Part shown: one piece after another, positions 10,004 through 56,228 of the stretch
How the letters are laid out: the number at the start of each line of letters is the position of its first letter
Numbering within the stretch: position 1 is the first letter of the stretch
Assembly (NCBI GenBank): GCA_004431415.1
Contig: QPMI01000663.1
Location: 1 to 62,741, forward strand
From: Cyanophora paradoxa CCMP329
Taxonomy: Eukaryota; Plantae; Glaucophyta
DNA length: 62,741 nucleotides
Direction: 5' to 3'
The notes under the pieces: generated by a model
What the model saw: the letters and a program-made list of their open reading frames with translations, nothing else
The model's database searches: none
Told to the model about the DNA's origin: nothing
Position numbers and translations under genes: made by a program

Positions 10004-11593
10004 GCAGTCTGCACTGACTCGAGCTCTGCAGTGAGTCTGCACTGCGGTACTACGGTAGTCTGCAGCTGGTGCGGCTGCACTCAGTGACCGTCGGACTGCC
10101 GGAGTTAGGGCTGTGGTCGCTGGTGGTCGCTTCGCTCGCGAGGTTCCAGCGGCCGCTACGCTTGGCGTTTTCCGCCAGCGACACCTCCTCGCTCAGCGTT
10201 TTTTATGGCTGACAGGCGCCAAAAAAAGCTCCATCCCGCTTTTTTCTCATCTGAAGGTCGACGTAGGTTGGCCTAGCCGATCAATCTTGCTAAATTTCGA
10301 CTGTTTTCGAGCATCCAGGCGCTCCGCTTCGCCCAAAAGCAGCCTGCAGCTGGCCTCTATCTCGCAGAAATTGACAGATGGCTCGCGGAACTAAGCATTA
10401 AATCTGCATTTGCGTACGCGCGCATCTTAAAAGCTTGTACGAAATAAACTAAACGGAACAGATAGGTTTTCGGTTGGTTTTCAGCAGTTTTTCGACAGGT
10501 TTTGGCGGTACCCCCACCTCAGCGACGGGTCAGCGACGGGCGCCGCTCGCCGGGCTTCAGCGGCCGCTGGGCCCGGCCCCCCCCAGCGAGCACAGCTCTA
10601 GCCGGAGTCTGCCGCACTGCGGCAGGCCCGCAGGCCCCTGAACTCGGAACATGAAGCCCGGCACTGGGCCGGCAGGCCCGCGGGGCCGGCGCGGGCCGCA
10701 GCCTCCCGCAGGCTCCGCAGCCTCGCACTGGCTCGCAGCAACGTCAACTTAATTTGCAAGCCGCCCCAGGCGGCTGGGCCCTTCCGAGGCTCCCTGCAGC
10801 TGCTGGCCTGGCTCCGAGAGGCTCATCACTAGTACTACTACTACGGTACTCAGTGACTGTCGGGCTCTCCGACGTCACGGATCCGGCCGGACTCGTGAGG
10901 AGCGCCCGCCGCCAGCCCCGGGCGCCAGCGAGGCTCGTATACGTATAAGTAGCTATATAGCGAGCCTACCGAGTAGTACCGACCGAACCGTATTCGTACG
11001 ACGCGCGCGGGCATATATATATACGTACCGCAGTACGCGCGCGCGCCTAGGCCTTTCCGAGGCTTCAAAAGTTTCGGCTCAGCGGCCGCCGGGCGCCAGC
11101 CGCGGGCTTAAGCTTCAACATTAAATACAATGCAGGTGCGCGGATTGCGTATGTATTCTTATAATTATGTATACGTATCATAGTATTACGTATACGTATA
11201 CCGGTACCATAGCTCACGTATATGCACATATATGCATTTGCATATATATGTGTATATAAGATATATATATAAGCTTGTATGCGTCCTTTTGCTTTTTTGT
11301 TTTGGAAATTTAGAGGGCCGACCGGCACCGCACCTCTTTTGCATCCGAGTGTTTCGTGCATGCACTAACTGCATTTGCGTGTTGGTGCGGCGCGAACCCA
11401 AATTATCGAGGTTGCCGCCCCCAGCCATTTCCATACATGGCCAAGTTTGGATTTTTTATGTTGGCGCGGCAAGCTCGCTCATGATGCAGCATTCAGAGGG
11501 GTATGCCCCCGTATGTACACTCGCGCGGCGGGCTCTGCTCCTGCTCCCGTCGCGCTGGGGGCGGGCAGGTCGCCGCCGGCGTCCGGCACGCCC

Positions 11594-12525
11594 TCACTCG
11601 TCCGCCCCGCGGATCTTTTTGCGGAGCTGCATATCCTTGGGCTGGATTGTGATGCTGCGCGCCCCCGGCGGTTACGTGCCCCTGCACGGGGCGCTACAGA
11701 GTTTTGGAGGGGGTAGAAGGGGCGGCACACCGCTTGGCATGGATCGCGAGGAGGTTGCTCCCCTCGAACGTCTCGATGGCGTAGCTGCGTCTCGACGATC
11801 AGTTGCAGAGCTCAGCATTTTGTATACTTGTAAATCTCGCGCACTGCTCGGTGGCCTCGCGGAGAGCAAGGACGGCCTGCCGGCACCAGCGAAGAGCGGG
11901 AGTGTCGGTCAGCCTTGCCTCACGAAGCTCTTTCAGGACATCTTCGGTGATCTCCTTGACGGTGCGGGTGAATGGGGCCAGCGCAATGATGGGTTCGGTT
12001 CGCTTCTGCCACTTGCGAATCTCTCTGCGAGCGACGGAGCATCGGATTAATATTCACTGAGCCTCCTGCACTTTAAACTTAGACAACGTCATGATCAATT
12101 GCAACGTACCGGAGGGCAACCGTGCCTCCGCAAAGGCGTGCGCGGTTATAAACAAATCAGATATATAGAGATCTAGAAACATTAAGAATTTAATGATAGT
12201 CACTTTAAAATAGCTATAGTAAGAGATCTAGATCTAGAATGATATCGATCATGATACGATGACATTTGAACCACTTATAGTCACTTTAATTAATTTAGCC
12301 CTTTTGGGTTCAACGGTTACAAGGCTCGCATACTGATCATGATCATGATCATGAACATGAACTCGGACCTGGACGGTAACGGTGAGGCTTCTTGACGCCT
12401 CCTGCGGCAGGAGCCGCTTTACGGGCCGCCTTCGACGCGAGCTTCCGCTCGCCTATGTTTGCGAATCGCTTCCGCGGGGCCTTGCCCCCCGTGCTCTTTT
12501 GCGCCGTGTGCTTTGTCCGTGCCAT
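11594..12525 (-). CDS. Histone H3 variant, 155 aa, 5 exons (12525-12369, 12125-12110, 12024-11845, 11784-11731, 11654-11594); CenH3-like histone fold with a canonical-like tail
   Basis: Spliced translation [155 protein letters not shown]. All four introns are GT-AG and the exon phases are consistent. Confidence 0.93.
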
Positions 12526-12676
12526 CTGGCTATAGTTTGCTTGGGCCGAAAGGCCCTGTGGCCTCGCTGGAGTGCACACGCGCGGGTGCTCTTATTTATA
12601 TATTCGTATACACATATGCATGTACACGGATTTTTTTTGCGTCGTGCATTTTAAACTCATGATCAGAATCAAGAAA

Positions 12677-14708
12677 TCAAGGGGCGTCGGACTCGGATTT
12701 CGAGCCATCGGCGTCCGAGGCCCCCGCGGCCTTGATGCGAAAGACGTTCTTCGGCATGCGAACGAGCGGCTCGCCCTTGCTGTCGACGAGCTTCCTCACG
12801 CGCTCGTCGAGCCGCTTCTCGATCTCCTCGAGCGCCGCCTCGTCGGCGCGCTGCAGGTTGGGGAGAAAGGCGACAAAGTCCGCCGGGCTGACGCCGTCGC
12901 CCACCACGCGCGCGAGGCCCGGGAGGCGCTGCAGGACGCGGGCGCAGGCGGCCAGGTCCGAGTAGGCCTTGGCGCACACCGAGCGCTCCTCGAGGCGGAG
13001 GCCGCAGGCCTCGAGGATGTGGTTGTAGCGCGGCTCGACGCGGTCCCGCCGAAAGTAGCCCCAGCTGCGGGGGTTCCGCCCGTTGGCCTCGACGTAGCGC
13101 TCGTACGCGCCGAGAATGCCCGTCGAGGCGAGGAGGAGGCAGCGGATCCGCTCCCGCCCCGCGTGCTGGGCCCGCAGGAGGAGGGCCCGCCGCGCCGCGG
13201 GGTCCCCGTCGAGCTGGATCCCGACGAGGGCGGCGTCGACGCCGCGCCGCAGCCCCCGCTCGAGCTCGCGGAGGGAGAGCGTCCCCTCGCTCCTCTCCGA
13301 GACCGCCTCTTCCCCCTCGCCGCCCTCGCCGCCGCTACCGCTGCCGGCGCCCTCGTGCTCCGCGTCCGCGTCCGAGCCCGAGTCCGACGTCTCCTCGCCG
13401 TCCCGATCCCGATCGGCCGCCTCGAGCTGGGTCTCGAACTCGGCCCGCTTCTGCTCCTCCCACTCGTTCATCGGCCCGTCCTCGCCGGCGGGCTCGCCTC
13501 CGGATCCACCTCCGCCGCCGCCCGCGCCGGGGGCCTCGGTCTCCTCGCCCTCGCCCTCGCCCTCGCCCGCGCCATCCTCGTCGTCCTCCTCGTCAAAGTC
13601 CTCGCGCTTGCACGTGTAGGCGTCGTAGAGGATGCGCTGCAGCTTCTCGCTTTCCCACGGCGGCCGCCGCTCCGACGAGGCGGGGCGGCGCTGCCGCTTG
13701 GCCGGCGGGCCCTTGGGCGCCTCGATGGCCAGCGGCGGCTCCTCGTCCTCGAGCTCGTCCTTGTCCTCGGCGGCCGCGGGGGCCATGCGCCTCGCGCGCG
13801 TCGCCCGGGCCGCCGGTGCCGGCGCCGGCGCCGGAGCTCCCCCGGCCGCCGCCGCAGAGCTCCCCTCGGCCGCCGTCGAGGCCTGAGAGGCCCCGGCGCG
13901 CCCCGAGCGGCGGGGCGTCGACGCGTTCGAGTCGGCCCCGCCCTTGCGCGCGGGCGCGGGCTGGGCGGCCGAGGGGGAGCCCCCGGCGGGAGGCTCCTGG
14001 GAGGCAGACTCGGCCGCGGGCGCCGCCGGTCCCCTGGACGAAGAGGGCCCCGCCCCGCCGCTCGTCGGGGGCGCGCGGCGGCACGAGGTCAGCGCGGCGA
14101 GCTGGATGGCGCGCGAGACGCCCTCGGCCGCCGTCCAGGACTCGGGGCGCTCGGCCTCGTGGACAAAGGCGCGGTAGGCGAGGTAGCCGTCGACGCGCGA
14201 CGAGGGGACGAGGGCGGAGAGCGTCGGGTGCGGCTCGCTGCACGCGCTCTGGAGCATGGGGCACTCGATCTCGCCCTCTTCGTCCCCGGCCGCGCCCGTG
14301 GGCGCGAGAACCTGCGCAGAAGGGGGCGATGGGCGGACTCCGGGAGCGGGGGGGAAGGTGGGGGTACGGGCGCGGGGGCGGCACCTTGGGGACGCAGGCG
14401 AGGCACACGAGGCCGTGGCGCTGGAGCAGGTGACCCGTCGGCTCGTCGTTGAGGTCGATCGCGCGGTCGAGGTCGCCCCCGCCGGCGAGCTCGGCGATGT
14501 TCCTGGCCAGGCACGCCGGCACGTACGCCGGCGGGAGGAGGCGCTCCGCGGCGCAGACGCTGCACCGGGGGCGCACGTCGAGGTCGAGCCATGCCGAGAT
14601 GTACTTGGGGCGGGCGATCCGCACGGGCCGCGCGTCGATCGGCGGGGCCCCCGATGCTGCCTCCTCCTGGGAGGACGCCGCCTGCTTGCCCTTGGCCTTG
14701 GCCCCCAT
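12677..14708 (-). CDS. Hypothetical protein with N-terminal RING-like Cys/His cluster, acidic low-complexity middle and helical C-terminal domain (at least 1 intron, ~14312-14385)
   Basis: MGAKAKGK...CSVC...HGLVCLAC..K|intron|VLAP...IECPMLQSAC joins ORFs 13593-14708 and 12677-14995. Confidence 0.6.
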
Positions 14709-14999
14709 CGAGACCGCGGGACCCGTGTTCCCGGTACCCTCCCCGCTCGAGTCGAGGGGGGTACGCAGGCCCTTTCAATCCTGCACGCGGGAATGAGACG
14801 GACGGTGTGCGACGTGCAGCCATTTATGAATTCTGGAGCTACACGTCCCGTCTCGCTTTCCTTGGTGCGCACCTGCGAACCGCGCGGCAGCGTCCAAGAG
14901 GCCTGCGTGCGCTCGGTCTCTGGGCCCGACAAGGCCCGTGCACCTCGCGACTCGTTCAAGCGGCGGCAGGCTTGTATCCCCCGTTCACTGCGCATGGTC

Positions 15000-15040
15000 C
15001 CGGAATCGGCCGAGCTCTGGTCGGGGGAGAGGGGAGGGAA

Positions 15041-15076
<36 letters not shown>

Positions 15077-16425
15077 GAAATTAAAACGCGGCTAGGTGCG
15101 GTCTTGTTGAGGTGTACCCGGCCCCTCTCACTTGCCGGATTTGAGAGCGGTTTCCGCTGTACCCTGACCGTACGATACATAGACCTGGAATCGGCCGAGC
15201 TCTGGTCGGGGGGGGGGGGAAGGGGGGTAGAGAGGGTAGAGGGCAAGGCCGCAAGGGTACCAGACGGACAAGCTCAAGGTCACTAAGGCGCCGGTCTCAA
15301 TTGCAACCCCTCGGCCGATTTCAGGTCTAGAGATTTAGAACGGGGTCCAACGAGCCGGGGCTGTACCCCGATTGTGTGGTGCATCTAGACCTGGGGTCGG
15401 CCGAGCTCTGGTCAGTGATCATGAGGGAATCGGAGGGCCGCGCGCGCTGCAGGGGTATAGAGGGGTAGGGTCGAAGGATAACGGTACCCCCCGTCGACGT
15501 CCTCCCCACCCACCCCTTTCCCCCACAAGGCCCGCAGACTACAGGAGATCCAACCAGAGCTCGGCCGATTTCGCGCCCAAAGGGGCAGGGTCGAGAGAGA
15601 GCGTGAAAGAAAACCACTACCCCCTCCATCGCGAGATCGCCACACATAGACCTGGGATCGGCCGAGTTCTGGTCGGCAGGGGAGGGGGTACAAGCGAGAA
15701 ACATAGGACGCAGGTGACGGGTTCGACTCTCGAGCGGATCCCTCCCGAAGAACGGCGCGAAAGACACGAGCAGCCTTCGTGAAAACTCGGCCGGCGCTCG
15801 TCTGGTATCAGCGGGTGTTGCGGAACGTTAACTCATCGGCTGGGGTGCGCGGAAAGAGGACGATCTGCGTATACGTAGCGATCATCGGATAGTAGAGCGT
15901 GAGCGACGCGCGGGCAAGCCTGCAGCTGACTACGCGAGAGATAGGGGCGCGTGAGGAGAAGAGAATCAAAGATCGAAACGTTAATTATAACCGGGGAGAG
16001 CCGAACCTGGAAATTTAAATGCGCCGGCAAAAAAAGGGGCCGACCAGAGCTCGGCCGTTTTCGGCTCCTAGGAGCTGTGCAAGAAGAGATCGGACTCGCA
16101 GCATGGGCGCTGGCCGCCGTCGGGGAGGGAGAGGGGAAAAGAGAGGGGTAGAACCACGCGAGAAAATCAAACGGAGAGCCCCCGGCCCGCGCCCCGACCA
16201 GAGCTCGGCCGATTCCGGGTCCATATGGGGGGGGGGGGGGGGGGGGGGGAAGGAGGAAGGGGGGGGAGGGGGGGGATGCAAGCGCGGTTAGGTGCGGGTC
16301 TCGTTCATTGAAAGACGTACCCTCTCACCCCTTGATGGATTCGAGAGCGGTTTTCCGAGAGCAACCCCTGCCAAGCTGTACCCCTAACCGTGCGCGCGGG
16401 GCGCATATATAGACCTGGGATCGTC
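15000..16425. repeat. Motif cluster 1: ~8 copies of (TAGACCTGGRA)TCGGCCGAGCTCTGGTC in both orientations, with poly-G tracts
   Basis: Forward copies near 15006, 15191, 15397 and 15658; reverse copies near 15311, 15553, 16041 and 16195; partial copy at 16411. G runs at 15041-15075 and 16227-16249. Confidence 0.9.
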
Positions 16426-17024
16426 AACTATAAAAATTATAACGTCAACTAGGATGTCCAATAAGTCCGAAGTTCGATCAAGTAGTGGCCACATGGCCGC
16501 TTATCCGGAATGACTTACGGACTGTGATCTAGATCTAGATCTCTCGTAATAAAGCCAATGCGGACGTCGACCGCGGCGCGCGCGAGCGACGGGGCGCCCA
16601 CCGGCGGCGGCCGCCGATCGCGAGTGCTGACGCCCGGCGCCGGCGCGCGGCGGCATCATGCTCCCGGTCCACCCATGGCCACCCCACGCCTAAAGCTAAG
16701 CTTAAGCTAAAGACGCTTCCCGAATGAGCCGAGAAGCTCAAGACCGGTACCGCTGCGGCAATCGCAAGGACCTCTGCCGCAAGGGCGGAGCAAATATATA
16801 TATATCCCATCCTCTTCGTCTATCAACTTTTGCCCCACGTGCAGAGCTCGTTCAGGAAAGACCTAGTACGGGCCGTCGGCTTCGTTAAGAGATCGGGACC
16901 ACTTCTAGCCCTCTATATAACTATCGGTTCCGTCGAGGTATACAAGCCCGCCTCGAGATCGAATTCAGATAAAGATTCAGATTAAGAGGACCAGCGCGCA
17001 TGCACTGTACACGGGCACGCGGGG

Positions 17025-19076
17025 CTAACCTTCCGAGCTCGAAGAGTCGCCATCGGACGAGGAAGACTCGTCCTCCTCCGCCTCGCCGGCGGAATCGGCG
17101 TCGACTTTGAGGTTCTTGCCGAGGGTGAAGACGATGCAGTACCTGCGCACGCGGGTCGCGGGATCAGGGCAGCCGGGGGACGCGCCCGCCGGCGCAGCGA
17201 ACCTAGGATCCGTCTCCCCGTCCACCACCACCTCGTGCTCCAGCAGGTGCCCCTGGCGGAGCGCCGGTTCGTCGCCGGCCGGGAAGAAAGGGGAGAGCGC
17301 CGGCGGGGGCCGGGGCGCTTACTCGGATAAAGACGACGTCTCCGTGTCGCAGGTCGAGGGAGATGCCAAGGGCGGGGAAACGCAGCCGATGCAGCCGCCG
17401 GTCACGGGTGCCGTCGGGGTGAAAGTAGACGAGGGCGGCGTAGGCCTCTTGCGCATCGTTCTTGTCCCGGTGGGACGTCGCGATCCTGGGGGGGAAAGGG
17501 GGGGGGGGGGGGGGGGGGGGAGAGGGAGGAAAGTCGGCATCCAAAGACGTTTTTTTAGGGCGAACTCACGTTTCCGGCGAGTTCATCCACTGCATCGACC
17601 AGAACCCTGCGCGCCCGCAACCGGCGTCGGGCCCGAAAGGGCGGGACGGCGCACGATGGCGGACCGTAATTGTACGGTTGCCGATCGAGGAGGCGAAGCG
17701 CGATCTCCGCCATGTCGCAGCCGGCCTTGACGTCGAAGGCGCAGAGGGCCGGGAACAGGTACTCGAGCACGCCGGCAAAGTACCCGTTCGCGAGGTGCAG
17801 CCGCCGGTTCGCGTTCGTGTCCGTGCCGAACTGCGGGTTCAGCGAGATCTGCAGGAGACCGGGTCGGCTCGCCCGCGCGGGCGGCCCGGGGCGCGGGGCG
17901 CGGGCCGCGCGCGGACCGGAATCGGGACGGACGCGCCCTGGGCCCGCTGGAAGCCGGTGGCGATCCGGGGCCCGCGCTTCTTCTTTGATTCACCGGACTT
18001 GCCCTCGGCGGGGGCCGCTTCCCGGGCCGCGGCGGCCCTCCGCGGCGGGCGCGCCGCTGCGGGGCGCGGGGGCGGCAGGAGCGCCTTCTTCTTGCCTCCG
18101 GGACGCCCGGCGAGCTTCTCCCGCATCACGTCGAGCCGCCCCGTCCGGAGCGCCGCCTCGGCCGCAGCGCGCGCCTCGTCGAGCAGCGTCTGGTCCTGCG
18201 CCGGCGCTCACGTTGCGGTCGCGGGCGGGGGCGCGGGAGGAGGGCGGCCGGCACCCGGGCCTCGTTGTACATGGTGCTGCGGCGGACGGAAAACCTAAAG
18301 GCCGTGGAGGCGCAGGCGACGGCGGCGGCCACCCGCTCGATCCCGGCGCCCTCGCGGAAGAGGCCGGGGAGGTGGACGGCGGCAAGGGCGCCGCTCAGGG
18401 AGATGCAGGCCTGCGCCCCGCGGTCTACGACGTAGTCGTGCCTCGCCTCGTCCTCCTTGGAGCAGCCAGGCGGGAGCGGGGCGACGTAGGCGGCGAACTT
18501 GCCCTGCGGGCGCGTGAGCCGTCGGCGCGGGGACGGGGCGGGACGGGGCGGCGGCGGCACCTCGGCCCGCTGCTTCCGGATGAAACGCGAGTCGACGCCG
18601 CCCCCGAGGAGGTTGCAGGGGAGCACGACGCACCGCTCCGGGGACGTGGCCCACGCCGCCAGCGCCGAGGCGTGCGGCGGTCCGTGCGGCCGTTCGAGCA
18701 GGGCCCCCTCGATCGCGCGGAGGGCGAGCAGGTCGACGGGCGGCGGGTTCAGCCCCAGCTCCGAGCCAAAGTGCTCTGCCAACCGGTCCGGCGGGCCCGT
18801 CATCCCCTCGGGTACTACGCCGAAAGGGAGCTGCGCATGCCGGCGGGGACCGTCGGGGCGCGCGCGCGCGCGCGGGAGAGCGCCCCTTCCGGAGCGCACG
18901 TGCAGGATCTGGCCCCTCCAGCGGACGGGACCGTAGGATCGGTAGCCGTACCGCCTCGTCGCAACGAGCTCGGCGCGCTTGTGGGGGTCTGCGGCGCGCG
19001 TCAGGGCCCCGGGCGCGATGGGGAGGGACGGCGGGGCGAACCATTCGCGCACGCTGGCCCGCCGGGCTTTGAGCAT
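17025..19076 (-). CDS. Multi-exon 2OG-Fe(II) dioxygenase, TET/JBP-like
   Basis: Spliced C-terminus reads ...YNYGFWSMQWMNSPETIATSHRDKNDAQEAYAALVYF...LRFPALGISLDLRHGDVVFIRGHLLEHEVV...RRYCIVFTL. It has HxD (17464-17472), a distal His and a terminal Arg in double-stranded beta-helix spacing. Confidence 0.75.
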
Positions 19077-19267
19077 TCGCGCAGAGTCTTAAGCTTAGGC
19101 GGCGCCGGCCAGACTCCTGCGCGCGGCGGTCGCTCGCCCCCGTATACCCTCGAGAACCCAGTCTAGATAACCCTATTGCAACTTTCAACGCCCCACGTAT
19201 ACGCTAGCGCGCACTCTGCCGGCGCCCACCCCCACCCTTTACTTCATCTAGTAATTTCTGTTTCGAA

Positions 19268-21820
19268 TTATGAACCGAGCACGTGTACAACATAGCTACG
19301 GCTTGCCGTGTCCGCGAGCCGCCCGCAGCATCTCAAGCTTGGCGTGGAGCTCCCGCTGCACCGCCGGATCGCTCGCGCTCTGAGCCGATATCGAATGCAT
19401 TCGCGAGGGGCGAGATGTGAAGAATCGGCAAGACACACCTCGATCTGCTTTACGAGGGACCCCTCGAGCTCCGAGGCCGCCGGCTCCATGACATCCGAGT
19501 CCCGCGCTGGCGTTTGCGGGAGAGGACCGGGTGAGCGGCGAAACGGTCCGGGTGAGGCGTGGGGGGGTGCCCACCGGAAGACGCGTGGTCTTCGTCCTCG
19601 ACGGGCTTGCTGGGACCCGCGGGGGTGGGATCCGCAGGCGTCGGCCTGCGACAGGGCGATCAAAGAAGCGGCGCGGCGCAAGGAGGAGGGCGGCCCCGCC
19701 CACCCGGGAGTCTCCGGAGGGTCCCGGGGATCGTTGGACGTCCCGCCCTCGCCCTCCTCCTTGACGACGGAGGCCAAAGTCTGCCGCGCCTCCTTGATAG
19801 CCTGCCTCCTGCGACTCTCGTGAGAGCTATTCGGGGGGGGGGGGGGGGGGGGGGGGGGGAGCCAAGGGGACGGCTGAGCACAGTTTCGCCACGAGAACGT
19901 CGTTCGGTCGGACCTCCTCCCGCCAGTTTTTCGACCGCATCTGCGTAACGCTGCGGTGGCCGGAATCGGTGGGCGACGAGAGCGGGGGGCGGGGTCGGAG
20001 GCGTACGGGTCGATCGGCGGGAAGCCGAGCGCGCGGGCCAGGAGAACGATGAGGGAGGTGGCGCCGTCGAAGCTGAGGTGGGGAATCTCCGCGAGATGGA
20101 CCTTTCCCCCGAAATGTCGCTCCAGGAACTTGCGCTGCTCTGTCGCGCTCCTCTTGAAAAAGGTGGGCGTCGACCACGTCGCCGTTCTTCGCGAAATGAA
20201 ACGGGGCCCGTCAGTGGCGCGGAGGGAGCACGGGCGCTACGTAAGACCCCGAGACGCGCACGCCGCATCCAGATCGGTCACGTCCTTGCCGTTGATCGTA
20301 CTCCATACCGGTTCGATCTCGGGGAGCCCCCCGTCGCCCGCCTCCTGCGGCCGCCTGACGGAACGCACGGCTTGTCGCCGGCGGGGGCGCGAGGAAACGG
20401 GGCGGGACGCACCGCTCGGCCGCGCGCTCGGGCGAGGATCCATCCGCGGCCGCCGCGTCTCCGACCCTGCGCGGGGATCAGCGGGGGAAAGGTCGAGGCG
20501 CCGCACATCACCGAGGCGGGCACCTTGGGCGCTTGGTACCGTCGGGGCCCGAGGCCGGCGTCGCCTCGCCGCCCCCGGCGGCGCGCTTGCCGGTGGCTTG
20601 CTCCGGCGACGCGACCGTCGGCGGCGGCGCCTCCGGGCTGCGGCGGTGAGCGACGGGGCGACGAGGTCGTGAAGGGCCGGGGGCACGGACCAGTGCTCAA
20701 TGTTGATGCCGCGTGCCCTGCACGCCTCTGCCGTCTCCCTCCGGGCATCGCCAAGGCGCCCCGAGCCGCAGCGCCCCATGCCCAGCTGCGTACGCAGAAC
20801 GTCGAGGGACTTGCGATCGTGAAACGCAGACTTGAGGACGACGAAGGTCCTGCGGCGAGCCGCGGTGAGCACCAGCCGCGCGCCGACGGAGATGGGGAGA
20901 GGAATAGAAGTCTTAGAAGAGGGGTGGGGGGTACCGGGGTGCAGAGGGGTCAACGGGGGTGGCGCCGGGGGCGGCGGCGGCCGGGGCGGGGACGGGGGCG
21001 GCCCCCGCGCCGCGCAGAGCCTCCTGCGCACCAAGGACGCGCTGAACGTCGGCCCGAACCGAGTCCATGCCCAGCTTTCCGCCGGCACCGCGCGGCCAGC
21101 AGAGGTGCACGAACGCGTCCCCGTCCAGCTTCTGCTCCACGGTCGCGTAGACCAGATCGTTCGTCCTGCACTTTTGCACGTACGCGATCTCCGGGAACAG
21201 GTGCCGCGGCCGCCCCGTCCTCTCGTCCACGCCGCATCCCTTGCACGGCGTGCCCGGCATCCCGACGCCGAGCTTGCCGAGGAGCCCGACGAGTCGCGCG
21301 CTCGGCGGGAGCGGTGCGAGGACCTCGAGCGCCTTGGGGGTGCTCAGCACACGGTACGCTGCGCGAGCGGCGTCGGGGGCCCGCGCGGGAGAGGCGGGGG
21401 CGCGTACGCGCGCGCGCGGCGCCGGCGGCCCGGCCGCGGCGCCCTCCCGGCCGCGGCCAGGATACGCACCCAGCGTGACGACGTGGCGGAGCGCTTCGAG
21501 AAACTGCTCAAGCTGCTGCGGCGAAGAGCCGAGCTGCGCTCCGCGCGCCTGCGCATCCGGCCGCGGCCGCGGCCACGGGCGGCGTCATCACAGGTTCAAA
21601 ACGAGCGGTCCGCGCGCGCGTGCGGTGGAAGCGCACCTGTACCGACTGGAGGGTGAGATCCTGCATCGTCTGCAGGTACGCCGCTTTCACGGCCGCCGAG
21701 GACTCGTCGTACGACGCGAACGACTTGAGCTCCGCCGGGAGGCCTAGCACGGCGGCAGGATTGCCCAGGTTGATGCCCCAGAAGTCTCGTGTCGTCCATC
21801 GCCGCCGCCGGCGCCTCACC
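19268..21820 (-). CDS. Multi-exon hypothetical protein
   Basis: Protein-like coding segments (DFWGINLGNPAAVLGLPAELKSF; CKGCGVDERTGRPRHLFPEIAYVQKC; RTFVVLKSAFHDRKSLDVLRTQLG) are separated by gt..cag introns. No family was recognised and the ends are approximate. Confidence 0.5.
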
Positions 21821-21878
21821 CGCGCGCGCGCCGGCCACTGCGCACGATTGGGGGTACGTCGTCGGAACGAGCCGCAGC

Positions 21879-23457
21879 ATGGCGGGCCGCCGGGTCGTGC
21901 AGCGCTGGTTCGACACAGCGTTCATCGTAGCACCGAAGCGATGTCGATTCGTTCGAGCGGGCCCCAGTCCCGTAGAGCTGCTGCAGCAGGAGCCTCAGAC
22001 CTTTGCCGAGGAGGTTCTGAGTCGCATACGGCGGGCCGACCGCGGCCAGTTCGAATCCCTCCACTTGCAATTGGTTGTAGCGACAAAGCGGCGTCGATGC
22101 CAATGGCGCGATTGCCCCCAGTCGACCCGCAAGACTCCCTTCTGCAAGGAGCACCTCGCGAAGCTGAAGGCGAGCACCGCCGTGCATTCGTGCCACTCCC
22201 ACCGTTTCCTTTCCTTACTGACAAAGGTTTAGCTTCGCATTGGCCCCTCCACGGTGTGCGACGGCGAGGGCTTGTTCGCCGAGGCGCTGCCGGAGGAGCT
22301 GGAGGCGGCGGCCGCCAAGGGGCTGCTTCCAACCGAGGTCGAGGTCTTCGGCCCGAACACGCAGTACTTTGTGTGCCTGTACGACGGGTCCGCAGCGCCC
22401 CGCCCCGCCTCAAGCTTGGCGCCCGCGCGGTGCGCCCGCGCCTGACGCGCCGCGCGCTCGCAGGATCTTGGTGACGAACCCGCTCCAGCACTGGTTCGAT
22501 CAGCTGGACGCTACGGGCGAGTGGACGTGAGTGGATGCCCCCCAGCGCCCAGCGCAAAACGTTTGCCCACGCGCGCGGGGGTCGGGCGGGCAGGTTCTGC
22601 TTCAAGATCGACTCTCTCACGTACATCGATGCGGCGCTGCTCAACTTTCTCGGCCGCTTCATCAACTGCGCGTATCCCGACGCGAAGAGGGGCAACGTGC
22701 GGTTCGTGGTGAACACGAGGCGGAAGGAGGTCCTCGTCCGCGCCACCAAGCCGGTCTTCCACCGCCAGGAGGTGCGAAGCCTGCAGGAATTTGCATCTTT
22801 TCGAGTATCTAACGGCACTCGTCCCTTTCCCCGCCGCGCGACCCCCCGAAGCTCATCGCCAAGACCTACGGTGAGCCTCCCCCCTCCCAACCTCCGCCTC
22901 CGCCGCGACCGCGCCTCGGAATCCCTTTGTGACGCGCTCGCGCAGGGGGCGGCTACTTTCCGCGGCTGATGGAGAAGCTCGAGACCGGCAAGCTCTGCCG
23001 GTGCGATTCCCGCGGCGAGGTGCGGATGTCGAACCGCACCGCGCGGGCGAAGCTCCGCGAGGGGTCCTTGAGCACGGAGGAGGACGCTCCCGAGCGCGAG
23101 GGGGGCGACGCCGTGCTCGAGCCCTTCCCTCTCAGCCCTCTCGGCCGGTGGTGGGAGAACCCGCCGAAGCTCCGGCCGCCGCCGAAGCGCAACGCCCCCT
23201 TTGGGGCGCGGCCGAAGAACAAGAAGAAGAAGAAGAACGCGAAGGCGTCCGGCGGCGGGCTCGGCGCGCAGCAGCTGCAGCCGCAGCTCTTTGCCGCCGA
23301 CCCCGAGTCATTCGCGGCCGCGGCCGGCGATCTCGTCCCGCCCCCATCGGGGGGGCCGGCCCTCTTCCTTTCGGGTGCCGGGGCGGAGGTCGCCGCGTTT
23401 TCTTTTCCCGAGGAGATCTCTGTAGACTACGAGATCGAGGGGCACTTCGGGTGCTGA
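21879..23457 (+). CDS. Multi-exon SET-domain protein (putative lysine methyltransferase) with N-terminal C-x4-C-x8-C-x2-H knuckle
   Basis: Spliced: RCQWRDCPQSTRKTPFCKEHLAKLK|LRIGPSTVCDGEGLFAE...CLYDG|...YIDAALLNFLGRFINCAYPDAKRGNVRF...VLVRATKPVFHRQE|LIAKTYG|GGYF...LCRCD. This covers the SET motifs GxGLFA, IDA, RFIN, ELxxxYG and a partial post-SET. Confidence 0.85.
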
Positions 23458-24595
23458 GCTCGAGGGCGCGGGGCTATGGGGTGTCGGGGCGCCCCCCTTT
23501 TTCTTAGGGCTGTCTCGCCATCGTCCACAGTCTACTATTTTAATTTATTCTAGTAATTTTCAAAGTTCGGTTGATTATTTCTTCTTTCATGAGTACTTGC
23601 GTCATTCTCATCAGCTGTGTACGCTTACGTCCGCATCCGAGCCATGTACACTCGATAGCTAGCCTAGCGCTAGCTATATCTAGTACTAGCTTGTAGTGTG
23701 CATGCCCGTGCATGCGCATGCGCAACGTTGACTGCGCGTGCTGGCCGACGCATGCATGCTGCAGCTGGGGGAAATTGGTTAAAACGTTGATAAGGGCCTA
23801 AGTCGGCCTGGTCCGCGCGCGCCGGCGCGGCCGGGCGCGGCGGTCAACGCACATGTACAACGATATATGGTGACGTCGACTCGGTGACTTCACTTTTGAC
23901 CGATGCCGGCGGCGATCAAATTGTCGAGGCGGTGGTTTTGCTGTACCCTTAAGCTTTCCGGTCACGGAGTGGAATCGACGTCGGGCACGTCCGGACCCGG
24001 GAGTGGCAATCTCAACCGTCGGACATCGTTTCGGCATCACGCACGTTAACTCATCATACCCACGTAGAGCAGAATCTGTGTGCGCGTCGTCGGACCGCGA
24101 CGAACAGCAACCAGCTCGCTGCACTGCGGCAGGCCCTAGATAGCTAGCCATAGCTATAGGACCGACGTTGACGCAGTCGCCGCGCGGCGCAGCCGACTCC
24201 AACGCCGGCTTAACGTCAACGTTCAAATTCGCCGCGGCCGCGCGCGGCCCGGTCCCGCGCGGATCCCCGGGCCGTCGGACGACGTTTGATTGCCTATAGC
24301 TATAGGCTTTAGCCACGCCTATAGCTAGTGCCACGGTGGTTCGACGGTTCCGATATATACTGCAGTCACGCACTCTTAGTACGGTACGTATACGTATACT
24401 ATAGCCTAGTAGCTAAAGCTATAGCTAGCTACAATACCGAGTCCGCGGCCGGCCCCCGCATGCGCATCGGCGAACTTAAGGATCCCGCGCAGGCCGGCAC
24501 CAGCGCTATAGTTAGCCAGATTGAGATTCAGTGCGCCGTGCCACGGTGCACGCGGCGCCGCTCGACGAGCCTCGGGGTTGATATCATCGCGCACC

Positions 24596-27500
24596 ATGGA
24601 TCCGGTAGTTCCAGTGCAAGGTGCGCATGCGTCTCGGGCCAGCCGCTGAATGTTTCGCTCAATTGCAATGATCGTCGCGGATTTCAGGTTCCAGTGTTGC
24701 TGGTGCCGCCGAGGGCGGGCGTCACAAGTCAGTCGACGTCTCCAAAGTGCCCTCTGTGGCGGAGATTTCGATTACGGTGCCGATAGCACGGGGCGTAACT
24801 GACACAAATGAAGAATTCGTACGCCCTAATGTGATTATGATTGAGCAAACAGCGATGGAGAAAGCAATTCGTGCGCGCGCGCGCGCGCGGTCGGCTGCGG
24901 AGACGCAGCAACCCACCGGTAATTTTAACACGAAACGGCAGGTACCTTTGTTTCCATGTCGGGCACACTTATTGAGTTGCTGAATTCAACGGAATCGCTC
25001 TCTGTCGGGTATATCGATCTGCACCCTGTCACCACAAAGAAGAACGTGAACCCAAGCAAAGTGGACGTTGTGCCGATTCCGTATTTTCTCTTTCAAATCG
25101 CTTTTCACCTCAAATCGCTCGCCCGTTATCATGAATGTGGAAGCGAAAGACCCTGTCCGTGGTCGACCCCCATTCTGCGCCTTCACGGAGATCTCGCGCC
25201 AAGTGCGAGAACCCACATTGGTTTGCCCCTGGGGTCTCGCCTAACTTTGAGCAAAGATTCTTCCGATGAGCTCGACGTGATAAGAAGAAACGCCGATCGT
25301 GGGGGGTTTTTTTCGATGGTTCGTATATGAAGCTTGATTATTGATAAATCATAACGTTGCGCGCCTACTTGGTTGAATGAGACACGTTTAATTTTCACAT
25401 TCGCAGATGTCGACGTTCGGGGGAGAAGATGACCCCGGGCTCGGCAGCTCCGCAGGCACTTCCTCCGGTACGAGATTAATATTCGAGTGAAGCAAATCTG
25501 TGGAGCCCCGGAAATACACCTCGTTGACTACGTGTGCAATGCATCGGCCCGATCAGGTATGCCCAAGCGGAACGTCTTGGTCATCGAGCGGTGGTCGCAG
25601 ATTCAATACCGTGAGTTTCCCCTCAGGACCTGCCTGGCAAATTAGAGCGCCAACACTCGACGCTCGTCGTTTCGATTTCCCACCAAAATCCCGCACTCAT
25701 TCGTTTGCATCCGCCCGCTCCCCGCCGCCTCGCCGCCACTGTACTTTAGGTGCATGTGCTTCCGCACTCCATACAGCCGAGGGCACGGAGGAGGGGTTGC
25801 CTAGCGAGGAGGTGGTACCCAGCGACGAGGCGACTGGCCATGAGGACCCGTTCCCGCGATCGTCCTTGTTCGATGAAGTTGGGCGCTCGCCCCCGGGTCC
25901 GTGCTTCTTCGAGTGCGAATATTCGCTGGCGGGCTCGAAATGACCAGCGTGCGTGTGCACAACATGTACAGCCGCAGCCGCAGCGCGGGCGATCGAAAGG
26001 TCTCCCGCCGAGGTCTCGGCCACTGGCTCGCCCCAAGTCCCGACGGTGGCGAGTCCTGCGCCCGATATCGATGCGGCATTGCTCGAGGGACGCGGCTCGG
26101 GCGAGCCTAGTGGTGACGTCCACGCGCGCTGTAATAGGTGCGCGATTTTGAAACCCGATTTTTTGCATCCAATCTGGTTTCCTGCACCGCGCGGCGAACC
26201 CGCTTGTCCCAGCTTTGCAATTGCGCCCGATGCATTGCGGCCGGCCCTCGATTTCGCCTTGGAATTTAATCGAATCGACGTCAAGAAGATTGAAACCCGT
26301 GCGCCCCACTTCCTCTTTTTTACGGACCCCCTGTTATATGCGCACAAGTACACTTGACTTTCTGTGACGCGTGCACGGTTTTGCAGATGCGAGAGACGGC
26401 GCGCATGGGCAGGAGAGCGAAAATGTGCTGTTCCATCTGGTCCTCGGCGAAGGCGATCCAAAGGATCTCTGCGACGCCTTTGTTGCGCTGTCGACGTTTC
26501 CCGAGATCCACCGCGCGGTGAGCGATCGCGGGCCTCGAAGAAATACGAGTCTCAGTTTTCACTCCGCACACCCGCAGATAGAACAAAGTATTCAGCAAAT
26601 ATTGGATTCAATGGGCCCAGGCTGCGGCGAGGTCGAGCTGATGGGGTGTCGCAGCGGATCCGTCGTTGTCATGTTCCGTGTCCTTTTTAAGAGCGCCGGC
26701 AATGGAAAGGCGTTCAAAGAATTTCTCGAGCAGTGCATCACGGATGGGCGACTCGCCGAATTCTTCAAGGAGCACAGCAAAAATGTGGATATCAGCGGCA
26801 AATTTGGCGGTGACCGTCGGCACGTCGACGCACAGCAGTATCATGTCGGAAAAGGGAAAGCAACGTCCCTTGCCGACGTCCGCCCGTCTCTGGCGTACGT
26901 GGAGAGCTCGTCGAGTGCGGGCACCGCCCCTTCTGCCGCCGCCGTGGGTCGCCGCGACCGGGAGGACGCTGCGGAGGAGGATGCGCAAGGTAATGCTGTC
27001 GTGGGCGTCGCGATCCTCCCATTTGAGCTGATCATGACAATTAACGGCACACTTGTATGTATGTACGCGGCGCAGCCAAGGTGCACCGGAGCCTCCACAA
27101 AAGATTCAACGTCGACTCCCAAATAATCCGGCCGGAACAGCTGAAAAGCCCCGTACGTTTGACCAAGGTCGAGTTGGGGGACGATTTCTCACTCGAGGGA
27201 TTGCGCCAGGGGGAACTCCAGCGCTTCTACACGTTCGAGGATGCAGGTCTTAATCGCGCGAATGTCTACGGCGTGTGGGGAGTTCCGCACGAGAATCCGA
27301 AAGGAGGCCGTAGTATTGAACAGCACATTGTGGAGAAGCTTAATTGGCCCGTATACGTATCGGAAGAGCATGTGCCCCCCGCGCCGGCGAGCTTCAGCTC
27401 GAGGGGCGAACCCCAGCGGGCGGTGCTCATTCCGTTCAAGGGGTTCGGGGACGCTTCGACCAACATGGTTCGCGCTAGCGCTCGATTGCATTGCAAACAG

Positions 27501-30500
27501 CACAAGAAACCACACCAGAGCCCTGAATCTGACATTCACGCGTGCAGTCTACGACGTGGGACTTGAGCGAGGACAACGGCCTCACCCGCCGCCCCCTCTT
27601 CATCGGACCCAGTCACCCTGGACACACAGTCGAAGCGTCCGAGATCGAACAGGCCGAGAAAATTGCCCTCGGTCAGATCGTGTCGCGCGCCAATGCAAGC
27701 ACATCCTACGGCGTGGTGTTCGTGGGTGCGAGCGAGTGCTCGAGATTCCGTCTGGCTCGCACCGCGCGCACGGCCGACAGCGGGATCCCGCAGGACTGCA
27801 GGCGTCGTACATCGTCGAAAACTACATGGAGGCGCTCTTTCACGAGATGGAGCAGCTCAAGGGGGAACTCCGAAAGAAGAAATCCGGCGGCGGCGCTCAG
27901 CCAAAGCAGCTCAGGGCGGGGCGGGAGGATGCCGAATTTCGCAAGCAGTTCAAGGTCGACAAATACTACCTGCGCAAAGACAAGAAGTGGGCGCCGATAT
28001 CGCCCGACGACGCGGAATTCGTGAGCGCTTGGCTTTTAGGAGATTTTGCTCGGCGAGTTCAATTTCGTCTCACCCGAATCGCACATGTTTGCGAGCAGAA
28101 GGAGAAGATATGCATTTTGTATCAGATGCCGAATTATGAGAAGGAGAAGGGCACGGGGCGGAAAACCGAGACGTACTTCACGCTGGAGAACTACTTCTTT
28201 CAGTGCTGCTCCGGCGGAGACGACGAGAACATGCGTTTCGAATTCGGCGGTTCCGACACCGGTATCCTTCGAAAGCTCTATCCCGGACTCGAATCCGGAG
28301 GTTCCCGCAAGACCGCGAGGGAGTGTGTTGTGCTCATCCTCCTCGAGCCGGCGCCGGCGCCACAGGGCGGATCGGGAGACGAGATGGAGGTAGATGGCCA
28401 GGGCGGCGAGCCCAAGGCGGCCCTCCGGTTCCGCCCGCGCCGCGCGTTCTTCGTCAACGAGTTGAGCGTGATTCCCGCGGAGAAGCTTCTCCGCGAAAAA
28501 ACCTGCATTTGGGCCTTTACAGGTGCGGCGATGCGGTGCGGCGTTGCGCGCGTTGGGCCGCGCAATCCCTTTCCCGTCCCCAACGCGCCGCCGCAGAGGA
28601 TCGCTACAAAGCCCGAGTGCAGCGCGAGGACCCCGATTTTGTGTCCGATGCATCGCTAAAGTCGAAGCCCCCACCCAAGGACGGGATGCAGTTCTGCGTC
28701 GACGTCGAGGAGGGCAGTCTCGCCGAGCAGTGGGACGCGTGTGCTGCAAAGCTACGGAAGCTCCAGGATGAGAGGCGGGGCACCTTCCTGGAGCTCGGCT
28801 GGACACAGGCGCGCAAGGGCGAGCGCAAGAGCACGCGCCACAAAGAGGCGAGCTTCATCGTCGACAATCCCGTCGCCCAGGCGCTCGGCATCGAGGTGCG
28901 GAATCTGCCCAAGGCCCCTTTGACTTTGGGCGGTGGTACCGGCGGCGGCGGTACGCACAAGAGCTCGTCAAAGTCGAGCACGGACTTTGACGAGGAGTAC
29001 TGGAAGGCGGCCAACGTCGGCGAGCAGGCCATCGCGGCGGCGGGCGGTCGAAACGAGGACGCGCAGGTGATCCTGTCCGCCGTCTTCCGAACGATACAGG
29101 ACCCAAAGTCTTACGAGAACATCACACTCGAGAGCCTCGGTTCGCACAACGCGGGATGATCCATTGCGCCCCGCTCGACCGCAGCAGACGTGTGCACATG
29201 CGCAGGCTCCACGGAAAAGCTGCGCTTTGCGAGGCGGGCGATCAAGCAGCTGATGGATCAGACGGGGAGGTATTCGAAGGGTATTTTCGGTCGCGGGAGC
29301 AAGGGTATCTTGTTGTACGGGCCGCCGGTGCGCTCGTGTGCACGCACGCGCCGTTGACGTTGCCCCGGTCAGGCGCGCTTTTCTCACCGACCCCTCCTCG
29401 TTCCGCAGGGAATCGGGAAGACTCAGATCATCCGGGCAATTGCAAAAGAGTGCAAGGCCACGTTCTTTCTGGTAACGCGCGGCACCATCTTCAGCAAATG
29501 GGTGCGACATCTCGTGCCCCCTCTCCGTGATCTTTGCGGCTCGATCGTCGCGCGTGACAGACCGGCGTGGCGGAGGCGAGCATGGAGACGCTCTTCTGCA
29601 TCGCCCGCCACAGGGCCCCATCGATTATTTTCATCGAGTACGCTTTCTTTCATTCGAGAAGCTCGAGCTCCGCGCGGAGAATCTAATGACTTGGCCCCTG
29701 TTTCCCTCCCCGTCGCCACCAGCGAGCTGGAGTCCTTGGCGTCGAATCGGACGGAGAACTCGCACGATTCTCAGATCGTAAACGTGGTAAGAAAACGAAT
29801 TTTCCGCACCCCCTTGCGCGATTCCGCCTCGCCATCCGGCGCCCGACGGCTCCCTCTGCTGTGCAGATTCTCCAGCAGATCGATGGATTCGTAAAGACGG
29901 AGCAGAGTCGCATTCTCATCGTCGCCGCCACGAACCACCGAGAGTACGTCGATCAGGCCATGCTGGACAGGCTCCCCAACCAGTGCGTCGGGCCACGGGG
30001 CGCGCCGTTCTCCGGCCCCCGGCTCACCGCGCCCGCAGCATCGAGCTGAAGCTCCCGACCGAGGAGGATCTCAAGCGCGTCCTCCTCGCCGACATAGCAG
30101 AGGCGGACGCGGCAAAGGATCTCGTCTACAAGTTTCAGCTGTCCGTTAAGGAGATCGATGCGTTTTGCAAAGAAGCGGCGGGAAAGGATGCAAAGATCTC
30201 GTACCGCGGCTATGCGTCCGTCATCAAACGCGCCGTCGACGAGAGCATCGTGAATGACGAGTGGGATTCCCTCGAGAGCGTTGACGACGGGCAGCGGGAT
30301 GGCTCCCCCGGCGCGGGTGGGGGCCAGGCCAAGCAAGAGACCTACCTGGTCAACGCGGAGCGCCTGATGGCCGCCTTGACGTGGTACGCGGGGCGCCAGA
30401 AGAAGCCCGGCGAGACATCGTACTCGGCGGCTTCCTTTGCGGGCCGCAACGCCGCCCCGTCACGTACGGTCTTTGGCACAAACGAGATGCTCGGCGCGCT

Positions 30501-31736
30501 GGCGAAGCACGCGGGCGTCCTGGAGGCAATCGTGAGCCGGATCGAGCGGATGAACGCCAGCGACCAGCAGCAGTGGAAGATTAACGACCAGATTCTGCGG
30601 ACGCTCCAGTCGCTTGAGCAACTCGTGAGCTCGCAGGCGAGCGTTTTCACACAGATCCTCCACGGCAACAGCGCCGCTGGACTGTTGTTCGGGGGCGGGC
30701 GGGCCGCTCCGGGCCACTGCCTCTTGTGCAAGCGGATCACCGCGGATGGCGAAGATCCGCGGGGCGGCGGCGCGCAGAGATCCGTGAGGGCCTCCTTGGT
30801 GCGGAGGGTTTTCTGGGCCATTTCACATACACTCCTTGGACTCTCAGCAGAAGTGACACTCGTCCAGATGGAGATCGACAGCGCTAGCGGGCCCTCGGCC
30901 CCCAGCGTCGTGTCCCCCACGTTTACGCACGCCGGCGTTGCATCGGAGAAGATGGTGCGTGCAGTTAGTTGTGTGGTGCATGTCCTCTCCTGAATTTTTC
31001 TGATAAACTCCACTCACCAAACAGGAAGGCGACGAGCTCGCGCCGCTTTCCGATCCGACTTCGCCGCCGGGACAGGTGCTCGAGGCGGGCTCCCCGAGCC
31101 TTCCTCCCCACAAGCCCGCCGCCGGCTCGCTCGGCGACATGGCATCCTACGCCGTGAAGTACATTCAACAAGGTCCGTGCCGGCCATCGGAATCTCGCCC
31201 GTCCAGATACCAATCGACCGGCCGAAAACAAAAGCGCGAGAGTTTTGGGTAGACTCCAACAAGGAAGGATCGGAGGCCGGACAGGAGCAGCCGTGGGATG
31301 GCTACATAATATGGTGCAATTCCATCAAGGTCCAGGGCACGGAAATGCCCGCGGGGCGGGGCTGGCTCTGGGTCAACCTGTCAGGAATGTGCCGCGACCA
31401 CCGGTACAAGCTCAGAGCCGGCGAGCTGGATCAACTTCGGAAGTTACTCCTGTGCGTTTTTACACGTAGTGCGGCGAACGGTCGTCGTCGCTCGCGGACC
31501 TTTTTGAAATGATACCGGACGCGCGCGCAGAGAGCGGCTCAAACTGGACTCGGCCGATGCCTTTCGGGACGGGGAGCCCGTGTCGCCGCCGACGGCCGCG
31601 GCGGTTGCTCCGAACAAGCTCAAGGGCATCTTCATCTCCCTCGCCAAATTGCACGAGGTGCTCGAGGCCCCGACCCCCTAGCTCGTCCGCGGCCAGCGCC
31701 GAAGTCGTTCCCGCAGCCGCAGATCTAGATATGTGA
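24596..31736 (+). CDS. Large multi-exon protein (possibly more than one gene) containing a classical AAA+ ATPase of the Vps4/katanin/spastin-like clade at ~29200-30260
   Basis: Spliced AAA domain: KGILLYGPP|GIGKTQIIRAIAKECKATFFLVTRGTIFSKW|..E.SMETLFCIARHRAPSIIFI(D)ELESLAS...ILQQIDGF...ILIVAATNHREYVDQAMLDRL. The upstream exons are uncharacterised (GSVVV SEA-like motif at ~26655). Confidence 0.75.
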
Positions 31737-31962
31737 TATCAATTTTGTCACAGTAGAAGATTTCGAAGATTCACAATATACATGAGATTCTAGTGTTCGT
31801 GGTCGCGCACTCTCCGAAAGAGGTGAAATGGGAAATTCGATAGGAAATCACACATTGATCGGCAGCAAATTCCCTCAAGCGACCATCTATCTCAGCATGC
31901 GCACATGCATCTGCGCCCTCGAAATCCGGCGCCCGGCGGCTCGAGATCCACCCAATGTCTAG

Positions 31963-35975: not shown

Positions 35976-36005
35976 GGGGTACGTATACGGCAGCGTGACC
36001 TCCCA
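35840..36005 (+). repeat. Left arm of ~160-bp inverted repeat (partner 38582-38739)
   Basis: ctggttgggtatcga..gaggggtagggcgccgggccggcacggcgctcaccactacccccc...cgaccagaggtcggccaattccgggtctacgcgtgacacag..gggtacgtatacggcagcgtgacctccca is the reverse complement of 38582-38739. Confidence 0.92.
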
Positions 36006-36072
36006 CCCCCCCCAACCAGAGCAACCCTTTCAATTTCGATTGCATCTCCAAAAATAAGATATATGTATATTT

Positions 36073-36247
36073 CACGATCGGGCGGCGGAAGGGGGCCTGC
36101 AGGCGCAACGCACATGATCGGGCGGCGGGAGGGGCGCGCGGGCGCTATGTACATGTACACGATCGGGCGGCGGGAGGGGCGCGCGGGCGCAACGCACACG
36201 ATCGAGGTGGCGGGAGGGGCGCGCGGGCGCTATGTACACGATCGAGG
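36073..36247 (+). repeat. Short tandem repeat (~40-45 bp x 4)
   Basis: The unit cacgatcgggcggcgggaggggcgcgcgggcgc(aacgca/tatgta) is repeated. Confidence 0.85.
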
Positions 36248-36273
36248 CGACGACCAGGTGCTCCTGGATGCCG

Positions 36274-38739: not shown

Positions 38740-38752
38740 CGCTACGCGGGAC

Positions 38753-53003: not shown

Positions 53004-53097
53004 GCTCCCGAAGAAAGACGCTCGCTCTGCTGGTTCGCGGTGCTGGCAGGTGCGCCCTGCCCCTACACTCCCCGGGGCGGGCCCGGCACGCATCGCT

Positions 53098-56197: not shown

Positions 56198-56228
<31 letters not shown>

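Follow-up and report, generated by a model that had tools for sequence, protein, structure and literature searches.

Single core histone genes have been described on several kinds of parasitic DNA. The nearest precedent for the gene reported here is H3L, which was described on a hAT 'transduplication' element of Pyrenophora tritici-repentis (Manning et al. 2013, PMC3538342) and resembles our locus in several respects: the element is multi-copy and carries one H3-like gene, the N-terminal tail is alignable and bears an insertion, and the fold is fully neither H3 nor CenH3. Viruses likewise carry a histone without partners, as described for the single H3s of DSLPV1, sylvanvirus, xenomavirus and NCLDV MAGs and for the H4 of bracoviruses; here, too, modification sites are largely kept, and the proteins are assumed to be incorporated into the nucleosomes of the host (Talbert et al. 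2022, PMC9145170). The CENH3 variants reported from B chromosomes of Sorghum, maize and Aegilops likewise place a CenH3-like gene on a selfish carrier (PMC12849586). CenH3 proteins have been characterized by replacement of Q68, F84 and T107, a longer loop 1 and a fold ∼50% identical to H3 (PMC7598501, PMC8015243), and a CENP-C docking motif has been described at the C-terminus of human CENP-A (PMC7659725).

The locus described here lies in a 62,741-nt stretch of Cyanophora paradoxa DNA (the window). The initial annotation had proposed that an element-encoded H3 gene appears there after manual splicing, and we confirmed a gene of five exons with predicted splicing, whose four introns (243, 85, 60 and 76 nt) are all of the GT-AG type and whose 468 nt form an open frame of 155 amino acids plus stop. 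The gene and its upstream surroundings are as follows:

12369..12525, minus strand: H3 variant exon 1, with the ATG and the entire N-terminal tail, in which eight residues are inserted after K18; runs to G44 in phase 1
12110..12125, minus strand: H3 variant exon 2, 16 nt, start of alphaN; predicted from the motif
11845..12024, minus strand: H3 variant exon 3, with the end of alphaN, alpha1 (T68), the 11-residue insertion, W84 and the start of alpha2
11731..11784, minus strand: H3 variant exon 4, with alpha2, S107, L110 and H113; splicing matches gene models P0002 and P0010
11594..11654, minus strand: H3 variant exon 5, with alpha3, the short acidic C-terminus and a TGA stop
12592..12602, minus strand: putative promoter, a TATA-like AT-rich word ∼70 nt upstream of the ATG, from sequence
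12680..14708, minus strand: upstream gene with a Cys-rich start and an acidic middle; one published model joins the H3 fold to it

Exon 3 alone matched the Pfam Histone family (E 2e-5), and when it was compared with the PDB all seven of the top matches were Cse4. The mini-exon at 12125-12110 was the sole one among 19 frame-keeping candidates to restore the H3 alphaN motif. Introns 3 and 4 are spliced identically in the published gene models P0002 and P0010, both of which lack the tail exons; intron 2 matches the intron of two canonical H3 loci in codon position and phase, and intron 1 falls exactly on the border between tail and fold. The GC3 of the gene is 0.75, with a host-like codon pattern. 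Three sets of RNA-type contigs, whose RNA nature is guessed, covered little of the gene and left the bin 11761-12011 empty, and the 15 of 35 joints listed include none at its introns, which leaves the contigs neutral on expression. We rejected model P0002, in which the upstream gene is fused to the H3 fold: the frame of the upstream gene stops at 12677, and the H3 gene comes with a separate ATG, a tail exon and an AT-rich word in front of it. Judged from these features, a fusion of this type is probably wrong.

Comparison with canonical H3 bore out each of the fold substitutions first noted for the protein, Q68 to T, F84 to W and T107 to S; over the whole fold, 51 of 90 positions (57%) are identical to canonical H3. 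Among 29 non-CenH3 comparison rows, Q68 was changed in one, F84 in two and T107 in six, and none had all three changes together or a loop of more than 12 residues. On this sequence comparison, the combination of fold changes is beyond chance. Loop 1 had also been described as about 11 residues longer than in H3. The length holds, the segment from I74 to R83 having 19 residues versus 8 in canonical H3, but some seven of the 11 extra residues are predicted to extend helix alpha1 rather than the loop: in an AlphaFold2 model of the fold (pLDDT 79, 18-row alignment), alpha1 is lengthened by ∼7 residues and the insertion is thus partly helix. The insertion is charged and helix-favouring, with 8-10 charged residues of 18-19, whereas long CenH3-like loops have 2-5 and, unlike it, are rich in G, S and Y. 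Elsewhere, alphaN is canonical (R49, R52, K53), residues that the CenH3-like comparison rows keep as well; the alpha2 site QAVL is also present in 6 of 20 canonical rows; and the protein closes on a four-residue acidic end. The near-invariant fold with an 8-residue loop segment that marks canonical H3/H3.3 was not found.

The N-terminal tail is identical to canonical H3 at 36 of 44 positions and has K4, K9, K14, K18, K23, K27 and K36 (one alignment puts R at 18 through gap placement, but an anchored comparison retains K18). The description of the tail as canonical-type is therefore right for the seven lysines, but it passes over the 8-residue insertion that follows K18, six substitutions (Q5H, R8Q, Q19K, T22S, S28A and T32A) and the broken A-R-K context at K9. 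Both A-R-K-S boxes, intact in canonical H3/H3.3, are altered here, by R8Q and S28A, while K4, K14 and K36 remain in their native sequence context. Silencing enzymes and readers are expected to require the A-R-K-S context. A7-R8-K9 is kept in 33 of the 34 locus H3s with an alignable start and in none of the three full-tail members of the family to which the gene belongs (see below). The copy in the window keeps both K9 and K27; a second copy type and the family member P0033 have K27R.

That the H3 gene is borne by an element, as had been supposed, is supported by defined ends at 11285 and 59160, by recombinase and replication genes within these ends and by the multi-copy state of the unit:

11285..59160, no strand assigned: mobile element unit 1, 47,876 bp; its left end abuts single-copy host DNA
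59161..62741, no strand assigned: second unit, head-to-tail, start only, 99.3% identical; runs off the window
59470..60396, minus strand: second H3 gene copy; five single nucleotides are missing from short G or T runs, and three of these losses touch exons
15005-16213, 35417-35953, 38635-39193 and 49615-50548, both strands: clusters of a 15-bp motif, all inside the element

The stop codon of the H3 gene is 309 bp from the left end of the element. In public DNA runs, contigs break at 11284 and 59160, which is where a multi-copy element predicts them to break: the single-copy flank contig of run X1 stops 30 nt past 11284, and contigs of runs X1 and X13 stop at 59160. Contig depth, which is not copy number, was ∼6-7x that of the single-copy flank (62-75) over the H3 gene, where two sequence types were seen; as an equally rough guide and not as copy number, it was 1.5-2x the flank at 15.7-16.2 kb and 2.3-5.5x over the right part of the element. 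At the listed sites the frame is open in both H3 copy types, and the six differing codons seen between them comprise three silent and three replacement changes, which provides no clear sign of constraint. The 1-nt losses in the second H3 copy are probably assembly errors; the variant listing of run X1 has no deletions at matching places. The element has no end repeats longer than 13 nt, and terminal inverted repeats of the hAT type are absent.

Both strands carry the 15-bp motif, whose 29 copies form four clusters (of 7, 5, 7 and 10) between 15005 and 50548 (0.1 copies expected by chance); the 11,284 bp to the left of the element have none. The motifs lie within 69/83-, 76- and 198-bp tandem arrays and in inverted arrangements, and are candidate binding sites for the origin-binding-type helicase listed below. 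The host flank has a repeat of another kind: at 9879-10003 of the window, two inverted 55-bp arms (96%) are separated by a 15-nt spacer, and high-copy repeats adjoin them at ∼9250-9500 and 10000-10750.

Besides the H3 gene and its upstream neighbour, the following genes were assigned in the element:

22233..23100, plus strand: SET-domain-like exons (weak); all three PDB matches (best E 0.19) are H3K4 methyltransferases, and Pfam gave no SET family
29358..30990, plus strand: AAA ATPase (PF00004, E 5.9e-6)
39401..40102, minus strand: RING-finger protein (E 5.6e-5)
40300..46298, plus strand: likely primase-helicase, an AEP-like primase plus a superfamily-2 / origin-binding-type helicase
46490..48367, plus strand: F-box-like protein (PF00646, E 0.002)
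50841..51566, plus strand: TFIIB-like protein (E 5.8e-7; second search E 1.3e-11)
52389..53105, minus strand: GIY-YIG nuclease (E 4.4e-8)
54560..56400 (approximate), minus strand: tyrosine recombinase (ESM Atlas 0.95-0.96; XerC E 0.1)
56421..57930 (approximate), minus strand: Ulp1-like cysteine protease (weak); four of four PDB matches are CE-clan-type proteases, best E 0.037

The likely primase-helicase is ∼1,900 amino acids long and has three paralogues at 71-89% on three other contigs; its family matches are weak (DNA_primase_S 0.015, PriS 0.09, CyRepA1 0.017), Walker motifs are present in the sequence, and a PDB search with the helicase returned P-loop noise only. The ESM Atlas neighbours of the recombinase were Preplasmiviricota clusters and one tyrosine recombinase cluster (0.95-0.96). 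Contigs from two studies that we guess to be RNA partly cover the genes for the recombinase, protease, nuclease and TFIIB. RNA-type contigs of two studies also skip a GT-AG intron at 55685-55740 on the plus strand, opposite the recombinase frame, which points to antisense transcription with splicing or to a second gene that overlaps, perhaps in a diverged copy.

No double jelly-roll capsid, penton or packaging ATPase gene was found among 130 + 147 frames searched with Pfam and 49 searched with PHROGs, a search that left out at least 79 frames of 90-189 amino acids and from which introns or divergence could hide genes. Thirteen short motifs of H4, H2A and H2B, sought in six frames of the window, gave one chance-level match; profile searches of the element frames found no kinetochore genes, and scans of IMG/VR found zero relatives of the helicase, the recombinase or the 15-bp motif. 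With its 48 kb, its introns, no terminal repeats and no capsid found, the carrier looks undescribed.

The H3 variant belongs to a family within C. paradoxa. At least four fold models are identical or 97% identical, two on the window's contig, one on tig00000849 and one on a further accession. The near-identical H3 on tig00000849 is four gene models away from a helicase paralogue; two further helicase paralogues are on other contigs. A HMMER search with exon 3 against 1.84 billion representatives gave 26 matches, and the 10 that we looked up comprised five more C. paradoxa genes, which share W84 and the long insertion, and five CenH3-like or divergent H3s; on these 10 of the 26, the long-loop H3 family is thus known from C. 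paradoxa only. Its members form one clade (support 100/98) and are 61-65% identical in the fold, yet the insertion has 18-19 residues in all four that are cleanly modelled. In five of five members K64 is replaced by a large hydrophobic residue, L65 by A and Q93 by R, and C110 is lost. The clade-wide changes at L60, K64, L65, Q93, L103, D106 and C110 occur in none of the CenH3-like rows. Position 68 is occupied by four different residues across the five members. A weak, word-based and length-limited search found none of the three helicase paralogues on the contigs of the five divergent members.

Outside C. paradoxa, a metagenome scan gave ordinary H3s and CenH3-like genes, with no family member among the 80 kept of 525; IMG/VR gave unrelated viral H3s only (two loci), the ESM Atlas searched with the H3 variant gave generic histone clusters only, and a PDB search with family member P0022 gave histones only. 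The gene models of P0022 and a second member, P0017, are fused to the same upstream sequence, hinting that these two share a neighbour gene distinct from the window's upstream gene. Three further H3s have features of their own. P0004, from Logan, has a near-canonical tail with a similar mid-tail insertion, W84 and a normal loop, and is the family's neighbour in the tree with weak support; metagenome contig L008 encodes an H4-H3 fusion with an acidic linker; and a giant-virus contig (L002:4947-5441) has one H3 only, whose tail is divergent and whose gene contains an intron.

C. paradoxa has five proteins in the published CenpA cluster in addition to at least nine long-loop gene models, among them g22645, g22662, g4783, g4815, g10412, g10531, g13931 and g15677, and the supplement of PMC5579357 places none of the long-loop family in that cluster. 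In one of the five, CPAR010062, the tail is unalignable, residue 68 is A, and the protein continues into MCM-like sequence. The joined sequence is presumably an MCM protein, judged by its motifs. These features would fit an ordinary CenH3 of the host whose gene model was wrongly joined, and CPAR010062 is our candidate for it. The initial annotation had named, as grounds for an ordinary host gene, that the element H3 be the host's only CenH3; instead, C. paradoxa has this separate candidate with an unalignable tail and A68.

The reading that we favour, with belief and doubt in equal parts, is that the element-borne H3 gives the element chromatin that resists host silencing and builds no kinetochore. 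The 'decoy H3' proposed earlier survives in this form, a decoy or chromatin modulator still being the best reading. The gene would have been captured from a host H3 gene at the DNA level, with its introns. The protein would pair with host H4 (no other core histone motif was found in the window) and would join nucleosomes with host H4, H2A and H2B, loading through the alpha2 site that is also found in canonical H3s. Its tail would keep the activity-linked sites K4, K14 and K36 while the A-R-K-S boxes read in silencing are altered, and the longer alpha1 and loop would change the set of chaperones and readers that act on the nucleosome. In a silencing host, an element would profit from nucleosomes open to active marks and closed to repressive ones, and C. 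paradoxa has been described to methylate and silence repeats and viral genes (PMC12344493); the same source reports giant-virus insertions in this alga, which may or may not include the 48-kb unit. We put our confidence no higher because the excess of A-R-K-S-box changes is not significant for any single protein (p = 0.30, 0.37 and 0.07), because this context is also lost in other C. paradoxa H3 variants (van Hooff list), and because the window copy keeps both lysines. The three CenH3 marks with a long loop, seen in none of the 29 non-CenH3 rows, and the prominence of Cse4 among the matches of exon 3 also count against this explanation, as does the weakness of the SET and protease assignments.

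The gene might, alternatively, be passenger cargo, one host long-loop H3 that the element took up near its end and amplified and that does no job for it; we regard this as possible but somewhat doubtful. Its position only 309 bp from the element end would fit, as would the many divergent H3s of C. paradoxa, with five family members of uncharted context, and the few silent differences between copies; the same 'drift' reading has been proposed for the hAT-borne H3L (PMC3538342). A cargo gene is harder to reconcile with a frame and splice sites that are intact in the well-assembled copy and with two copy types that are both open at the listed sites. Nor does it account for a contig depth of ∼6-7x the flank over the gene versus 1.5-2x at 15.7-16.2 kb, although depth is not copy number, or for the other chromatin and ubiquitin-pathway genes aboard the element.

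The initial annotation had also offered a centromere-like histone, encoded by the element to segregate an episome or to target centromeres. Such a protein would join a CenH3-derived fold to an H3 tail exon and start a kinetochore on the element's repeats by which an episome is segregated, or direct the element or its integration to host centromeres. We consider it unlikely, and slightly more so in the specific form of a chimeric histone, with an H3 tail exon and a CenH3-type core, that a family of large integrating elements would use to make a private centromere on the repeat clusters and so segregate an excised circle, or to enter centromeric chromatin by the loading route of the host. What speaks for the idea is that the classical substitutions and the long loop recur in five of five members, that Cse4 is the best match of exon 3, and that intron 1 at the tail/fold border makes exon shuffling possible; the head-to-tail junction, likely replication gene and clustered repeats would fit an episome, and B chromosomes are described to carry CENH3 variants of their own (PMC12849586). 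Phylogeny leaves CenH3 ancestry neither shown nor rejected. We used a tree of 41 rows and 91 columns with loop 1 removed, in which comparison rows were labelled from sequence features (25 of 82 loci as non-CenH3, 5 as CenH3-like) and near-identical locus H3s and the host's own genes were left out; five of its six CenH3-like rows are one fungal-type group. The free tree kept the family clade and the six CenH3-like rows apart, but forcing them together cost 0.73 log-likelihood units (AU p = 0.47, host genes absent). The proposed fold phylogeny thus resolved the family as a clade of its own (100/98), but with host H3 and CenH3 absent and at this AU value it separates the two placements no further. 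The most identical comparison row was CenH3-like, at 67% versus 61-62% for canonical rows, though this row was the best of 525 by resemblance; with sister family members it shares 56%.

The C-terminus argues against a centromeric role. All five members end in a short, acidic stretch without W, F, L or I, whereas the five CenH3-like rows having a C-terminus all have large hydrophobic residues there, as do two red-algal CenpA entries and human CENP-A. Among the attributes of CenH3, then, the element H3 has the three replacements, the longer loop 1 and a fold 57% identical to H3, and it lacks the unalignable tail and the hydrophobic docking residues. A centromere-like role is further opposed by the canonical alphaN, although the CenH3-like rows keep the same residues, by a family clade with changes not seen in those rows, by the charged and helix-forming insertion (8-10 charged residues of 18-19 versus 2-5 in CenH3-like loops), by the four residues found at position 68 in five members, by the absence of kinetochore genes from the profile matches of the element, and by the host's own CenH3 candidate. 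On present sequence grounds, the resemblance to CenH3 may have arisen by convergence or by descent; the kinetochore-docking end is absent in either case.

A decaying H3 pseudogene, in which relaxed selection mimics CenH3, is improbable: R63, K64 and C110 are lost and the second window copy is frameshifted as assembled, but the same changes are common to members only 61-65% identical, and the frameshifts fall within short homopolymer runs close to the window end and are absent from the run X1 listing. An ordinary host gene, a true or duplicated CenH3 within a segmental duplication and no mobile element, is scarcely tenable, for although the spliceosomal introns, the host-like codons (GC3 0.75) and the want of a close relative outside C. 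paradoxa among the matches looked up would suit it, it is largely refuted by the defined element ends, which are sharp in independent runs, and is further opposed by the recombinase and replication genes in the same 47,876-bp unit, the element-restricted 15-bp motif and the pairing of H3 and helicase on a second contig.

With an element-borne H3 that resists silencing as the preferred reading, we return to the known systems. A full-text literature search found no paper on the long-loop H3 family or the 48-kb element, and the words 'histone', 'viral' and 'virus' are absent from the main text of the genome paper (PMC6704402). Few of the histones captured by elements and viruses have had their roles tested, and those described in the papers cited here are near host H3 or lack the full CenH3 signature. 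The element H3 splits the sequence marks of CenH3 from its tail and docking end, and so offers a natural test of the predictive value of these marks. It is also a warning for CenH3 annotation, which is unsettled in C. paradoxa: several such genes of this one genome would pass the usual screen. If the element is indeed shielded from a host that methylates its repeats, it would possess a histone-based anti-silencing tool; if the protein reaches centromeres, this would be a new kind of genetic conflict; and should the chimera reading be true, it would be the first parasite-encoded centromeric histone outside B chromosomes.

As an element, the carrier resembles Polinton-like viruses and Cryptons in its tyrosine recombinase, weakly assigned primase-helicase, GIY-YIG nuclease and head-to-tail junction. 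Cryptons are integrating elements that use a tyrosine recombinase. Polinton-like viruses are given as 14-40 kb (PMC12220804), whereas this element has 48 kb, genes with introns, and no capsid or packaging genes found. Viral histones, in the account available, have folds 73-89% identical to host-type histones (PMC9145170) versus 57% (51 of 90 positions) for the element H3, which, unlike them, has introns and a CenH3-like alpha1 and loop and comes from an element in which no capsid gene was found. With CenH3, CENP-A and Cse4 it has in common the replaced Q68, F84 and T107, the longer loop 1 and a fold ∼57% identical to H3, but its tail is alignable, its alphaN canonical (though in residues that the CenH3-like rows share), its docking residues absent and its changes clade-specific, and the gene is multi-copy and mobile. 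The CENH3s of B chromosomes are described as close copies of host genes on whole chromosomes (PMC12849586), whereas the element H3 is a distant variant on an integrating element. H3L remains the closest parallel, yet it sits on a 5.6-kb hAT element in 26 near-identical copies, as opposed to a 48-kb tyrosine-recombinase element with a likely primase-helicase and an old, diverged family (61-65%) in a glaucophyte host; the Cyanophora fold moreover has all the classical CenH3 marks and an 11-residue insertion (PMC3538342). Captured single histones on elements and viruses were thus already known; what is new here is the carrier and the CenH3-like core.
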